A DNA stretch of 29,683 nucleotides from Spirochaetaceae bacterium (GTDB lineage: Bacteria; Spirochaetota; Spirochaetia; B11-G9). The stretch lies in NCBI GenBank assembly GCA_030643345.1, contig DAOWMA010000001.1:1-29683 (forward strand). Direction: 5' to 3'. The notes beneath the pieces were generated by a model that was given only the letters and a program-made list of their open reading frames with translations, had not been told where the DNA came from and searched no databases. Each line of letters begins with the position of its first letter. Position 1 is the first letter of the stretch. Below, piece after piece: positions 18,897 to 26,178 of the stretch. The translations under genes and the position numbers were made by a program.

Positions 18897-19211
18897 CTAA
18901 ACTCCTGCTATTTCATTTACCTTAACATAGGTATAGTTTTGTCGATGTCCCTGTTTTCTTCTATATCCCTTTCTTCTCTTAAACTTGATAATAGTAACTT
19001 TTTTATCCTTACGATGGTCTTCTACAGTTGTAGAGATCTTCACACCCTTTACATAAGGGGTACCAACCTTAACCTTACCATCATTATTAAGAAGAAGCAC
19101 GGAATCAAATTCCAGTACCGATCCATTTTCTGCATCTACTTTATCAATCTTCAAGACTGCATCTTTTTCTGCTTTGTATTGTTTTCCCAAAATTTCCACT
19201 AATGCGTACAT
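18897..19211 (-). CDS. rplU: 50S ribosomal protein L21
   Basis: MYALVEILGKQYK...VGTPYV...KRRKGYRRKQGHRQNYT. Confidence 0.98.
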   Translation of the reverse strand: MYALVEILGKQYKAEKDAVLKIDKVDAENGSVLEFDSVLLLNNDGKVKVGTPYVKGVKISTTVEDHRKDKKVTIIKFKRRKGYRRKQGHRQNYTYVKVNEIAGV

Positions 19212-19249
19212 CTGCTAAACCTCAATTATTACAAAATCAACTAGGGTAC

Positions 19250-19279
19250 TATATAGCATAACAGGCTCTCTCTGGTCAA
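19250..19279 (-). promoter_or_regulatory. Putative promoter of rplU-prp-rpmA-obgE
   Basis: Minus strand TTGACC-N18-TATATA with TG extension; GAGG SD before the ATG. Confidence 0.45.
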
Positions 19280-19354
19280 TACTCGGGTTGTTCTTTACGG
19301 TAGATCAATGATTCCCAGGTTATGATTTTTGAATTTCCTGGGCATTACCCTGGA

Positions 19355-19382
19355 TAGAGGCGAACACAAGGTCCGCCCCTAC
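19355..19382 (-). repeat. GTAG-type REP palindrome
   Basis: Minus strand GTAGGGGCGGACCTTGTGTTCGCCTCTA, sitting in the loop of the ACCCTGG/CCAGGGT stem. Confidence 0.7.
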
Positions 19383-19450
19383 CAGGGTCAGGCTATTCGC
19401 TGCAATTCCGCCCGGATTTGATTAACACGATTACAATTTTGTTTTGGTGC

Positions 19451-19478
19451 GTACAGACGCAAGATTTTGCGTCTCTAT
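19451..19478 (-). repeat. REP palindrome (GTAGAGACGCA type)
   Basis: Plus strand GTACAGACGCAAGATTTTGCGTCTCTAT; 19443-19477 is the exact reverse complement of 21411-21445 (35 bp). Confidence 0.75.
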
Positions 19479-19641
19479 CGCGGCATACAACCACGGTACG
19501 GGATTTCCGCTGCTATCCTTAATGCAGATGGCAAACTTTTTTATGTTTTAATGCTTTACATTCAGATATCAGTATTTAATATAGGGTTTATTGCTTTTTG
19601 TATTAAAATAAAGGTAATATTAGTAAATTAAACATTATTAA

Positions 19642-20196
19642 CTAACAAAAGATAATAAAAGGAAAATAAAGATAGTGAAAATTAGACTTATCCAAACCCA
19701 ATGCCTGAGTAATAATATGATTCCGGGGGTGGGAAATAATATCTCTCTTTTCTATCTGCCCCATTTTATATAGTTCCCAAACTTCAGACTGGTCCTCTGT
19801 AAGCTGTGTTAGTTTCCCATTTCTAAACAGATATCCCCGACTATCTCCTACATTGTAGAGATCCACTACATTATCCTTAAAAAGAGCTGTAACCAGAGTA
19901 GTTCCCATTCCATCGTACTGTTTGTATTTTAAGGACAGATTATAAAGCTTATCATTTACTTTTTTTACTAATTTTGGAAAAGCTTCGTCCGGTGTTTTGT
20001 AATAATCGTCAAACAGCCAGGTGAAAGCCATTTGAGAAGCTACTTCTCCGGCATTTCCTCCACCCATACCATCGTATAGAACAAATAGATGACCGTTTTG
20101 GGATGTACCGACTCCTTCCGTAATGTCCGGCAACATATAAAAATCCTCATTGTGTGAATAGCGTTTACCGATGTCTGTTTTTGCTGTGTAGTGCAT
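19642..20196 (-). pseudogene. C-terminally truncated PP2C/PrpC-type Ser/Thr phosphatase
   Basis: TDIGKR..HNED, DGMGGGNAGEVAS, GMGTTL, NVGDSRGY, QLTEDQS, HPRNHIITQALG. The sequence then turns into AT-rich junk; the CSDG and DN motifs are absent in all frames I read. Confidence 0.85.
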
Positions 20197-20260
20197 GCTC
20201 CATCCTTATTCCAATAAAATGATTAATAATATCAATTAAAATAATTCAATCAAACAAAGG

Positions 20261-20341
20261 TTAAACGAAATCTGCCCCACAACATGTACAAATGTTGCTG
20301 TCACTTTTAATTTCTTTTCCGCAATCGTTACAGAATGGCAT
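20261..20341 (-). CDS. 26-aa zinc-ribbon microprotein (or gene remnant)
   Basis: Not in the ORF track. MPFCNDCGKEIKSDSNICTCCGADFV*; CxxC-x10-CxxC; GAGGAG 6 nt upstream. Confidence 0.65.
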   Translation of the reverse strand: MPFCNDCGKEIKSDSNICTCCGADFV

Positions 20342-20374
20342 GATGGACTCCTCTTGCAAGTGTTATCGCAATTT

Positions 20375-20403
20375 ATTTTAAGACACATTAACCAATTTCT
20401 CAA
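20375..20403 (-). promoter_or_regulatory. Putative sigma70 promoter for the zinc-ribbon/PP2C unit
   Basis: Minus strand TTGAGA-N17-TAAAAT; the -35 box lies inside direct repeat 1. Confidence 0.6.
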
Positions 20404-20492
20404 GTAATTATTTTGCCAAAGATCTCTTCATTTAAGATAAACAAACCCAAGTATTGCTCTCAAACTCAATTGATAGTATATTTACTTTATGG
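20391..20492 (+). repeat. 102-bp direct repeat, copy 1 (rpn upstream region + ATGG)
   Basis: 100/102 identical to 21241-21342. Confidence 0.97.
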
Positions 20493-21014
20493 CTTTCGAA
20501 CATGACAGAAGATACAAACGAATATTCTCTCATCCATATTTTATACAGAAGCTTTTAGAATCTTTCGTCAATGAATCCTTTATTAAAGATTTGGATTTTT
20601 CTACACTTAAACGAGTAGAAAAAAGTTTTATCAATGCCGATTTTAATGAAAAAGAATCTGATCTTATTTTTACTATTCAGTTTAAGGGAAAAACTATCTA
20701 TATCTTTTTATTGCTTGAATTTCAGTCCACTGTAGATAAATTTATGCCGGTACGTTTCTTAAGATATATAATGGAACTTTACGAGTCTTATAAAAATAAA
20801 AAATGCTGTTTCTGCTATATTTTATATTGAGAATTCAAGCCCTTTGGAACTTGAAAATGAAATAGATATACTTATGGAAATTATTAAAAATGAAAATCTT
20901 TCTATTATACAAGAGCTTGTAGATTGGTTTAACAACTATCTATCCGGTTTAAAAAGCAATTTTGATAAAGAGAGTATTTCTATAAAATTAGAATCTTTAA
21001 CGGAGGTAAAATCG

Positions 21015-21218
21015 ATGTTTGCTACAAAACTAAAAGAACATGATGAAAAACTTATAGAACAGGGTGTTGAACAGGGTATTGAACAGGGTATTGAACAGGG
21101 TATTGAAGAAACAGCTGTAAAAATGCTTGAAGCGGATGCAGATATTTCATTTATTTCAAAAATTACTGGTCTTTCCAGGGAAAAATTGATAGAAATGAAG
21201 GGAAAAATTGGGAAATAG
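21015..21218 (+). CDS. Small internal Rpn C-terminal product (RpnS-like antitoxin), 67 aa
   Basis: GGAGGT (21002-21007) 7 nt before ATG 21015; MFATKLKEHDEKLIEQGVEQGIEQGIEQGIEETAVKML...ISKITGLS. Confidence 0.65.
   Translation: MFATKLKEHDEKLIEQGVEQGIEQGIEQGIEETAVKMLEADADISFISKITGLSREKLIEMKGKIGK
21057..21104 (+). repeat. 4 x 12-bp coding tandem repeat (EQGV/EQGI)
   Basis: GAACAGGGTGTT followed by three GAACAGGGTATT. Confidence 0.95.
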
Positions 21219-21240
21219 GTATAATTCCTGTTTTATAAAC

Positions 21241-21342
21241 ACCAATTTCTCAAGTAATTATTTTGCCAAAGATCTCTTCATTTAAGATAAACAAACCCAA
21301 GTATCGCTCTCAAACTCAATTGATAGTATATTTATTTTATGG
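21241..21342 (+). repeat. 102-bp direct repeat, copy 2 (no rpn gene follows)
   Basis: Second copy ends at ATGG and continues only as MDQIMKP*. Confidence 0.97.
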
Positions 21343-21363
21343 ACCAGATAATGAAACCCTAAA

Positions 21364-21521
21364 GCGTTAAGGATAGTAGCGGTACCCCGCACCGTGGTTG
21401 TATGCAGCTGTAGAGACGCAAAATCTTGCGTCTGTACGCACCAAATCAAAATGTGGTCCCGTTAATCAATTCGGGAGGAGTTCAAGCGGATAGCCTGACC
21501 CCGGGCACCGGGGTAACGCCC
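21364..21521 (-). ncRNA. Flavo-1-like structured repeat, copy B, with one embedded REP
   Basis: Minus strand GGGCGTTACCCCGGTGCCCGGGGTCAGGCTATCCGC...CGGGGTACCGCTACTATCCTTAACGC; homologous to copy A in inverted orientation; first G is the last base of the argS TAG. Confidence 0.6.
21410..21437 (+). repeat. GTAG-type REP palindrome
   Basis: GTAGAGACGCAAAATCTTGCGTCTGTAC. Confidence 0.75.
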
Positions 21522-23284
21522 TACATTCTCTCAAGATACGGTATTCCCACCAGATAGAATGCATTTTTCAATACCTGGAGAACAGCTCTTACAAGTGTAA
21601 TACGGCTTACAACAATATCCTTATCAGGGTCCTGGAGTATCGGGATATCGTGATAATAGCGGCTGAATATTTTGGACAGGTCATACAGATACGAGGTTAT
21701 TACAGAAGGATTCATATTTTCCCCCGCATCTTCAACAATCTCCGGAAAAGTTGATAACATTTTTACTATTTCACGTTCCTGTTCAAGGTCGAGTATCCCC
21801 GGCTTAAACTCACCGCCCTTAAAGTCATCTTTACGCTCCTCATACTTCCTGAGCATGCTGCTTATACGTGCACCCATGTACTGCAGGTAGGGACCGGTAT
21901 TACCGGAAAAAGAGATAGATTCCGACGGATCAAATATCATGTCTTTTGCAGGTGAAATCTGCAGGAGATAATAGTTTAATGCAGCAAGGGCCACAGATTC
22001 AGATGTCTTTTGGAGATTATCCACCAGAGCTGTCCTGTCCTTGGCTGTAATTTCTGCTTTTGCAATCTCTGTCAGCTCCTGTACAAGATCGTCAGCATCC
22101 ACTACAGTCCCTTCTCTGGACTTCATCTTTCCATCAGGAAGATTTACCATACCATAAGAGAGATGATGAAGATTATCTGCCCAGTCAAATCCAAGCTTCT
22201 TTAATATATGAAACAGTACCTGAAAGTGATACTGCTGTTCTGAACCTACCACATAGATTAACTTCTCAAAAGTCCAGTCTCTGTGCCTGGCAATAGCGGT
22301 ACCAATATCCTGGGTAAGATAGAGTGATGTTCCATCACTTCTTAAAAGAACTTTTTTATCCAGATTTATTTCTGAAAGGTCCGCCCAGATGGAACCGTCA
22401 TCTTCTTTGTAAAAAACACCGGATTCAAAGCCTTTAAGGACCTCTCCACGTCCCTCCTTATAGGTTTTACTCTCAAAATAGTATTCATCAAAAGCGATAC
22501 CGGTTTTTTCATAGGTTTCTTTTATCCCGGATATAGTCCAGCCATTCATCATTTCCCAGAGATCTTTAATATCTTCTACCCCGTTTTCCCAGTCCTTCAA
22601 CATCGTTCTGGCTCCGGCTTCCGCATCCGGATCTTCCTTTGACCACTGGTTAAACTTTACATAATAGTCGCCCACAAAATGATCACTTTTTATTCCAGTG
22701 CTTTCAGGTGTGGAACCCTCTCCAAATGTTTTATACGCAAGCATCGACTTACATATATGAACACCACGATCATTTATAAGATTAACCCTGCGTACTTCAG
22801 CACCATTGGCGGCCATTATTTTTGCGACACTCATTCCAATAGAGTCATTTCGTAAATGACCAAGATGCAGTGGTTTATTGGTATTAGGACAGGAAAATTC
22901 AACCATTACCTTCTGACCCCGAAAATTAGCTGTATTACCAAAGGTACTTTCATTTCGGAGAATATTATCAATAACTTTTTCAGTAAGATCGGAGAGATCT
23001 ATTCTAATATTTATATAAGGTCCTGTAATGTTAATAGATGCAGCAGCTTCAGGATCATTTTCTTCAAAAAAAGATTTTAAATTCCCGGCAATATCTGCAG
23101 GGTTCTTCTTAAAAAGTCTTGCTAATGGGAATAGAGGAAATGCAATATCACCCATCTCCGGCTTCGGGGGTTTTTCCACTATAAGATTTATCTGCTCCCT
23201 GTTCAGCTTAAAACCCTGAAGCTCAGCAATGGAAAATAAGGCCTTTTCCAGTTTAATTTTCCATTCTATCTTTATATCATTCAT
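21521..23284 (-). CDS. argS: Arginine--tRNA ligase
   Basis: VEFSCPNTNKPLHLGHLRN (HIGH), SLYLTQDIG, YVVGSEQQYHF, GKMKSREG, GNTGPYLQY. ATG 23284 is best spaced from GGGAG (alternative TTG 23287). Confidence 0.97.
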   Translation of the reverse strand: MNDIKIEWKIKLEKALFSIAELQGFKLNREQINLIVEKPPKPEMGDIAFPLFPLARLFKKNPADIAGNLKSFFEENDPEAAASINITGPYINIRIDLSDLTEKVIDNILRNESTFGNTANFRGQKVMVEFSCPNTNKPLHLGHLRNDSIGMSVAKIMAANGAEVRRVNLINDRGVHICKSMLAYKTFGEGSTPESTGIKSDHFVGDYYVKFNQWSKEDPDAEAGARTMLKDWENGVEDIKDLWEMMNGWTISGIKETYEKTGIAFDEYYFESKTYKEGRGEVLKGFESGVFYKEDDGSIWADLSEINLDKKVLLRSDGTSLYLTQDIGTAIARHRDWTFEKLIYVVGSEQQYHFQVLFHILKKLGFDWADNLHHLSYGMVNLPDGKMKSREGTVVDADDLVQELTEIAKAEITAKDRTALVDNLQKTSESVALAALNYYLLQISPAKDMIFDPSESISFSGNTGPYLQYMGARISSMLRKYEERKDDFKGGEFKPGILDLEQEREIVKMLSTFPEIVEDAGENMNPSVITSYLYDLSKIFSRYYHDIPILQDPDKDIVVSRITLVRAVLQVLKNAFYLVGIPYLERM

Positions 23285-23338
23285 CAATTGCTCCCAGGAT
23301 TGCCACCCTACTTAATTTTTTTAATCAGTGCAACCATT

Positions 23339-26142: not shown

Positions 26143-26178
26143 ATCCGTAGGGGGGATTCATGAATCGCCCCTACGGAT
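26143..26178. repeat. GTAG-type REP, 36-bp palindrome with one mismatch
   Basis: ATCCGTAGGGGGGATTCA|TGAATCGCCCCTACGGAT; overlaps the tsaD stop codon. Confidence 0.8.

Follow-up and report, generated by a model that had tools for sequence, protein, structure and literature searches.

The window analysed here is the whole 29,683-nt stretch of contig DAOWMA010000001.1 and belongs to a metagenome-assembled genome (MAG; 391 contigs, 68.6% complete; hereafter G000), one of the seven genomes, G000 to G006, of a genus of uncultured marine Spirochaetaceae. In this window, a minus-strand run of obg, rpmA, prp and rplU extends up to position 19211, and the stop codon of argS begins at 21521. The interval between rplU and argS holds accessory genes (the cargo) and, at its two borders, two inverted copies, A and B, of a structured intergenic repeat that resembles the RNA motif Flavo-1. 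A pair of the same repeats brackets the same site in the most distant member of the genus, around unrelated DNA. The features of the interval and its flanks are listed below, with scores from R1, a covariance model built from 26 copies of the repeat, and from Rfam and Pfam; REP denotes repetitive extragenic palindromic sequences, and ORF an open reading frame.

18897..19211, minus strand: rplU (ribosomal protein L21; Pfam Ribosomal_L21p, E 1.6e-36), heading the rplU-prp-rpmA-obg run
19212..19336, minus strand: native rplU upstream region and the A-rich 3' extension of element A (GCCC-AGGAAATTC)
19337..19528, minus strand: element copy A, long form (R1 182 bits; Rfam Flavo-1 31.1 bits, E 5e-4)
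19451..19478, no strand: REP-like 28-nt palindrome nested in A, within the 35-nt core
19642..20196, minus strand: Stp1-type PP2C phosphatase ORF, C-terminally truncated, 184 aa
20236..20403, minus strand: 55-aa ORF from the ORF list, called a zinc-ribbon ORF in an earlier note on this DNA
20391..20492, plus strand: direct repeat 1, 102 nt, comprising the rpn upstream region and start codon, 98% identical to 21241-21342
20489..21218, plus strand: broken rpn (Rpn/YhgA-like recombination-promoting nuclease), as ORFs 20489-20830 and 20844-21218
21241..21342, plus strand: direct repeat 2, comprising the start of a further rpn copy that breaks off after ATGG, where the 5' extension of B starts
21361..21524, plus strand: element copy B, short form, with its 5' extension at 21343-21360 (R1 162.5 bits; Rfam Flavo-1 19 bits)
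21410..21437, no strand: REP-like 28-nt palindrome nested in B
21521..23287, minus strand: argS (arginyl-tRNA synthetase; Pfam tRNA-synt_1d, DALR_1, Arg_tRNA_synt_N), convergent with B

An inverted pair with changing contents

The two copies lie head-to-head, with their 5' ends (the heads) facing inwards to the cargo and their 3' ends facing outwards. They are 84% identical over 144 nt, a likeness far above chance, and their longest exact run of 35 nt (19443-19477) is the reverse complement of 21411-21445. Copy A consists of a closing stem (GCATTA/TAATGC), a Flavo-1-like basal stem, a central palindrome and a 3' hairpin with a second GTAG palindrome; copy B has the closing stem GCGTTA/TAACGC, and its 3' end abuts the argS stop codon. 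The earlier note, made from the window alone, had described two homologous inverted elements that share a 35-bp identical core and enclose all the non-housekeeping DNA between rplU and argS, and these observations are confirmed.

In a fragmented MAG, many contigs of which end at repeat copies, one copy or even the whole island could be a chimeric join, a doubt already raised in the earlier note. Logan contigs from the source sample, a marine sediment, span the flank/A, cargo/B and B/argS junctions exactly, that is, three of the four junctions (the A/cargo junction, at about 19527-19745, lies outside Logan coverage), which argues against an assembly artefact, and the independent MAG G005 shows the same architecture. 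We regard such an artefact as exceedingly unlikely, and the doubt was not borne out. Two other signals in the Logan contigs were rejected: an 'opposite strands' joint at 19427/21459, with 42 nt on its shorter side and a depth of 3.4, and a 159-nt skip are both too short, and could too easily stem from other copies, to serve as evidence of inversion or excision. An 18-nt pattern across the B/argS junction had 37 matches in metagenomes, none of them with the element and all due to chance.

In nearly all relatives that carry both genes on one contig, argS and rplU are neighbours that run in the same direction, about 70-180 nt apart; this short spacer is found in all four genomes of the sister genera and in several other families of the class. 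The 2.3-kb interval of the window is therefore derived, and the view that it contains extra DNA holds. The closest relative, G003 (ArgS 95% identical), has a 114-nt spacer without elements that keeps CCC-GGAAATT, like the 3' extension of A, and in G002 and G006 the argS stop is immediately followed by what remains of a copy oriented like A. The rplU upstream sequence of the window is also conserved in the spacers of G001, G002, G003, G006 and a further genome, G007; within this sequence and these spacers (window positions 19212-19290), a promoter-like site before rplU, TTGACC-N17-TATATA, is well conserved across two genera. The site lies between A and rplU, and if it is a promoter, A falls outside the rplU leader.

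In G005, the most distant congener (ArgS 76%), an A-like copy lies upstream of the rplU promoter region and a B-like copy abuts the argS stop, in the same orientations as the window pair. Its two contigs overlap by 141 nt and, when joined, give a 1661-nt island, the only recognisable content of which (a 79-aa ORF and a weakly PIN-like 193-aa ORF) is unrelated to the window cargo. Homology between G000 and G005 detected by blastn runs from rplU through A and ends at 19526, restarts at 21364 and continues through B into argS, so that its ends coincide with the element heads. The bracket is conserved while the DNA between the heads differs completely between species. The B copies of the two genomes are nearest relatives in a tree of the copies (support 0.975), and the orthology of the A copies is based on their position and on the unbroken alignment from rplU into A; both A copies carry the GCATTA closing-stem variant. 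No clean target duplication is seen when the filled site of the window is compared with G003 (TAG/GGCGTTACC ... GTAATGCCC/AGGAAATT versus TAG GCTCCC GGAAATT). The cargo has no second copy in G000 and was not found as a unit in 10 genomes of the family. The island of the window contains no transposase or transposase remnant, and no remnant of a RAYT (REP-associated tyrosine transposase) is present in the window cargo or the G005 cargo. The most parsimonious account of these sequences is that the pair was ancestral to the sampled genus, that its cargo was replaced, and that the block was lost in G003 and G001.

Similar pairs occur elsewhere. On contig C50 of G000, an inverted pair arranged like A and B is flanked by an HU-like gene and a class II aminoacyl-tRNA synthetase gene and encloses a nucleoside phosphorylase gene, a DUF433/DUF5615 pair, a hypothetical gene, a RAYT gene and a PEGA lipoprotein gene; this second pair around a variable island fits the bracket idea of the earlier note. 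At the same site, G003 and G004 carry copies at both borders (type 2, a variant described below, on the HU side) around partly or wholly different content, and G002 lacks the element and has other small genes there, 0.9 kb in all. A further head-to-head pair in G004 surrounds a single EamA gene.

A Flavo-1-like repeat family with nested palindromes

Flavo-1 (RF01705; Weinberg et al. 2010, PMC2864571) is a motif of unknown function that Rfam lists for Bacteroidota and some Spirochaetes. At Rfam gathering thresholds, the window yields three tRNAs and no Flavo-1 match. With permissive filters, Flavo-1 is the only Rfam family matched, at 31.1 bits for A and 19 bits for B, below its gathering score of 42 bits; 16 of 17 further copies also match it at 24.2-32 bits, always over the full model and on the same strand, and the Flavo-1 model run across the whole genome returned weak matches only (13.7-16.1 bits). 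Since all these scores lie below the gathering score, we call the family Flavo-1-like: it is a distant, enlarged relative of Flavo-1 and not a member. The Flavo-1-like label given in the earlier note holds with this qualification, and for annotation, sub-threshold Flavo-1 matches do not justify labelling these elements as small RNA genes. What the repeat shares with Flavo-1 is the basal stem with two symmetric G/A-rich internal loops, near-consensus on both strands (GAU.G.AGCGGAAAU ... AUUG.AGCG.A.AGC..GA), a basal helix that is backed here by covariation. It departs from Flavo-1 in that the apical 19-23 nt of the model are replaced by 90-92 nt carrying a palindrome, and in having an extra closing stem, a 3' hairpin and A-rich extensions. 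Variants that we term type 2 keep the 5' and 3' modules and differ in the core; compared with Rfam, they match no credible family, Flavo-1 included.

In each unit, a 6-bp closing stem (consensus GCGTTA/TAACGC) pairs the two ends; the unit further contains a basal helix with the two G/A-rich internal loops, an apical region with a perfect 28-nt palindrome, and a 3' hairpin that is short in B and in the copy on contig C62 and includes a second palindrome in other copies. In a MAFFT alignment of 26 copies made without reference to the structure, pairing holds in 91.7% of cells, compared with 27-42% when the partners are slid, and 19 of the 31 pairs change on both sides, values reached by none of 500 shuffles. 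In the basal helix, which RNAalifold recovers, both-sided changes occur at pairs 10/166, 15/161, 19/157, 20/156, 24/152 and 26/150, and the closing stem exists in at least six compensated variants (GCGTTA/TAACGC, GCATTA/TAATGC, GTGTTA/TAACAC, GCGTGA/TCACGC, CCGTT/AACGG and GCGTA/TACGC). With 44 copies, the covariation result is the same for the closing stem, the Flavo-1-like basal stem and the central palindrome. Wobble cells comprise 7 of G.U type and 21 of A.C type, many of the latter at helix ends, with no preference for the sense strand. The covariation indicates a fold maintained by selection, whether it forms in RNA or in single-stranded DNA. The elements are structured units that form in single strands and not plain repeats, which fits the ssDNA idea of the earlier note. 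Beyond the closing stem, about 42 copies carry semi-conserved A-rich extensions (5' AAAACA..TGAAAACC; 3' GCCC-RRAAARAATC), which may be part of the element or a preferred target.

The family has many copies in the genus and is nearly absent from sister genera. G000 contains about 12 full-length copies plus variants, and R1 finds 21 matches in G000, 15 in G001, 33 in G002, 19 in G003, 34 in G004, 13 in G005 and 6 in G006, compared with 0, 0, 0 and 1 in the four genomes from two sister genera. When one genome from each of 185,579 species was scanned for an exact pattern, the element turned up only in MAGs of uncultured marine Spirochaetaceae/Spirochaetia. Every copy that could be placed is intergenic. 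Core genes adjoin the copies (topA, thyX, uvrA, nrd, aconitase, rimP, ctpA, osmC and rplU) and have no pathway in common. The copies on C312, C106 and C256 are orthologous in G003 and/or G004, and most copies checked occupy orthologous sites beside core genes, not synteny breaks. The earlier note had proposed a test for enrichment at synteny breaks, of which the copies checked give no sign, and the placement of copies at random with respect to variable regions, which it had named as a refutation, is largely what we see. Relative to genes, 20 of 29 copies are co-oriented with the downstream gene, and of the 9 convergent ones, 7 are no more than 20 nt away from a stop codon. Empty sites were sought at 20 loci of G003 and G004, with three orthologous filled sites and no clean empty site as the outcome, most loci being blocked by contig ends. 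The tmRNA gene and, 17 nt downstream on the other strand, a copy of the element occupy 749-1104 and 1121-1308 of L053 (contig C162 of G004).

Although fixed in position, the copies change in their interior. Between the orthologous copies C106 and G004:C14, and likewise between C256 and G004:C78, the palindrome differs in its inner 12 nt, each copy having the common type of its own genome; at the thyX and HU loci, a type-2 core has taken the place of a type-1 core; and grouping in the copy tree tends to follow the genome. The elements stay put while their inner modules get overwritten in a genome-specific manner. Upstream of thyX, the core swap is seen between G000:C380 and L041 (G003:C285), and behind the HU-like gene, between L072 (3187-3337) and L118 (726-880). 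At both sites the cores lie between the same 5' and 3' modules, and the swap looks like a module replacement in place.

The 35-nt core shared by A and B has the palindromic form GTAG[AG]G...CTAC. G000 contains at least 50 strict GTAG...CTAC palindromes, which fall into several sequence classes and many of which stand by themselves between genes; one such stand-alone palindrome of a different class (GTAGGGGGGATTCATGAATCGCCCCTAC) lies in the window at 26147-26174. The nested 28-nt palindromes, which occupy two loops of the element, are short, GC-rich, GTAG-headed, extragenic and present in many copies, as REP sequences are. G000 encodes six Y1_Tnp genes (PF01797), and the Y1 protein on C50 scores 89.6 bits on NF047646 ('REP-associated tyrosine transposase'; cut-off 80). 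The C50 gene lies between the inverted element copies, 1.1 and 2.5 kb off, with other genes intervening. The incomplete genome G000 carries three closely related RAYT-class genes (on C50, C209 and C125), although RAYTs are described as typically single-copy. A similar 105-aa hypothetical gene adjoins the RAYT on C50 and on C209, and in G004 both genes lie directly beside the HU-side element. Within two RAYT-like ORFs, GTAG palindromes occur in frame in the HUH-Tyr linker (L083, G000:C307, 2769-2796; L075, G000:C263, 194-221), which places the repeat within genes of its presumed transposase family.

The association of REP sequences, and of the REPINs that they form as inverted doublets folding into one hairpin, with RAYTs has been described in Pseudomonas and enterobacteria (Bertels and Rainey 2011, PMC3116915; PMC3337134). 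The spirochaete family resembles these systems in its GC-rich, GTAG-headed palindromes of several classes and dozens of copies, in the RAYT-class genes of the genome, in the persistence of copies at orthologous intergenic sites and in their concerted evolution within a genome. Unlike a REPIN, it has a branched fold of about 190 nt and a non-palindromic scaffold in which the palindromes are nested, and unlike the REPIN-RAYT arrangement, it occurs in a Spirochaete lineage with six RAYT-like genes instead of one. What is new here is a variant, combining a Flavo-1-like scaffold with REP/REPIN biology in a new lineage. Since 2010, Flavo-1 has counted as an orphan 'RNA motif', and its distant, enlarged relative behaves here as resident, concertedly evolving DNA of the REP/REPIN type: a Flavo-1-like repeat with nested REP palindromes, in a RAYT-encoding genome and in a lineage outside Bacteroidota.

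Origin of the bracket and competing explanations

We favour, with a probability of about 0.6, the reading that A and B are an old head-to-head pair of resident repeats, comparable to REPINs and to bacterial interspersed mosaic elements (BIMEs), whose centre accumulates and turns over accessory DNA. Under this reading, the ancestor of the genus would have acquired an inverted doublet immediately behind the argS stop codon, and the centre of the resulting long palindrome, between the heads, would be a fragile or recombinogenic point. Breaks at this centre would have led to the capture of small accessory modules (toxin-antitoxin or defence-like genes) that later decayed, and slippage across the base of the palindrome would have deleted the pair and its cargo together. 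The argS-rplU pair looks older than the split of the sampled species and unlike a cargo-carrying transposon. BIME, ERIC and BOX repeats are modular, intergenic and foldable, have exchangeable sub-modules and often lie directly behind stop codons, as does this repeat; they have no sequence relationship to it and are not known to form conserved inverted pairs holding variable gene cargo. The same bracket with different cargo in two species offers a testable case of repeats creating hot spots for accessory genes beside essential genes.

Several points weigh against this reading. In the copy tree, the A copies of G000 and G005 stand apart from each other, and the apparent scar in G003 could be a preferred target motif at a site that was never occupied. 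The head-to-head pairs number four, at three loci in seven fragmented genomes, and are not statistically distinguishable from chance pairing. The link between RAYTs and the element is circumstantial, and no element was found in the roughly 1.5 kb around the RAYT-like genes on C209 and C125. The capture of DNA at the centre of the palindrome is something we infer and did not observe, and the reading as a whole draws on DNA sequence from genomes and metagenome contigs.

The earlier note had proposed a miniature composite transposon, in which the elements are the ends of a non-autonomous unit that is mobilised in trans and moves its cargo to new sites. The island limits do coincide exactly with the outward 3' ends of both copies, the closest relative lacks the block, the genome encodes RAYT-class transposases, and a second inverted pair surrounds the variable island on C50; as in composite transposons and miniature inverted-repeat transposable elements (MITEs), inverted terminal copies enclose cargo, and each element has a short inverted repeat at its ends. 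However, the cargo is single in the genome and decayed, was not found as a unit in the family genomes and lies between junctions without a clean target duplication at the one filled/empty site compared. Moreover, G005 has the same pair at the same site with unrelated cargo; fixed ends and varying content are the opposite of what this model predicts. IS200-type Y1 transposases use ends on the same strand, not inverted ends, and a sequence recognised by a transposase would be expected to be constant, whereas the end-to-end stems of the repeat covary, which points to selection for pairing. With no transposase inside the island either, a mobile unit of this kind is very unlikely. The broader suggestion, that the elements are recombination ends that shuffle cargo, survives in modified form: cargo may be exchanged between the elements, but the elements themselves are stable and there is no sign that the unit moves. 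Taken together, the observation made in the earlier note is confirmed and its interpretation is partly supported.

A site-specific form of exchange, in which the heads act as recombination sites folded from single strands in the manner of integron attC sites, would account for the end of G000/G005 homology within a few nucleotides of both heads, for the duplicated rpn copy that is cut exactly at the 5' extension of B, for the G004 pair around a single EamA gene and for a fold under selection. Like attC sites, the elements are folded single-strand units directly behind ORFs, with conserved structure and variable sequence and terminal structure. Yet the closing stem reads GTTA...TAAC and not ...AAC...GTT..., so that the order of GTT and AAC is reversed relative to the R''/R' of attC on inspection of the alignment; the attC-like core order (RYYYAAC ... 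GTTRRRY) is reversed in all aligned copies, which led us to reject an attC-like site, no arrays occur, and no integron integrase was seen, though no search was aimed at one. On the cargo side there is no common junction motif, no recombinase is linked to the pairs, and two species only are informative at argS-rplU. Sharp boundaries would also arise if selection preserved the elements while the intervening DNA drifted or was replaced. We consider site-specific exchange improbable, and equally so the bolder proposal that Flavo-1-type head-to-head pairs are a cassette-holding device, with a vertically inherited bracket and small accessory or defence modules swapped at single-strand heads. If the heads were recombination sites, they would represent a new way to hold gene cassettes; such a device would work like an integron although no integron is present, and would provide Flavo-1, an orphan motif, with a role.

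Finally, the repeat may be a functional RNA family, with copies serving as small RNAs or acting in cis at 5' or 3' ends, for example by stabilising the end of the argS mRNA, in which case the bracket would be coincidental. The strong covariation, the conserved Flavo-1-like internal loops, the retention of copies at orthologous sites across species and the orientations relative to genes (20 of 29 co-oriented, 7 of 9 convergent copies near stop codons) speak for RNA, but the wobble cells show no clear bias towards the sense strand, and each central hairpin is a perfect palindrome of a kind that is also found by itself and is exchanged throughout the genome. The position of A, upstream of the promoter-like site conserved before rplU, puts it probably outside the rplU leader; given this position and the unrelated core genes downstream of the copies, we rejected a riboswitch or leader regulon. 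In Flavobacterium psychrophilum, Flavo-1 matches are found in sense or in antisense orientation relative to transcripts, and many of them are not transcribed (PMC9723704), which also counts against an RNA role. We regard this explanation as possible, though unlikely.

Cargo genes of the window

Profile searches confirm that both recognisable cargo genes are damaged, as the earlier note had stated. The PP2C ORF matches positions 1-163 of 232 in NCBIfam NF033484 (148 bits against a cut-off of 230) and positions 18-136 of 209 in Pfam PP2C_2. The 55-aa ORF has no family match in Pfam or PADLOC, and PADLOC gave marginal matches only for the cargo proteins. Copies of the 102-nt direct repeat sit on either side of rpn. 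Compared by blastn with a 312-aa homologue in G007, rpn has lost about 168 nt internally (about 60 profile positions); Pfam Transposase_31 covers positions 2-104 only, and TIGR01784 covers positions 2-94 and 155-270. The GC content of the rpn part is 26-31%, compared with 38% for the genome. In its C-terminal part, rpn contains a 12-nt tandem repeat of EQGI type (21044-21107), and one unit, at 21067, is absent from the Logan contigs of two runs from the source sample, which indicates that the repeat number varies in the population.

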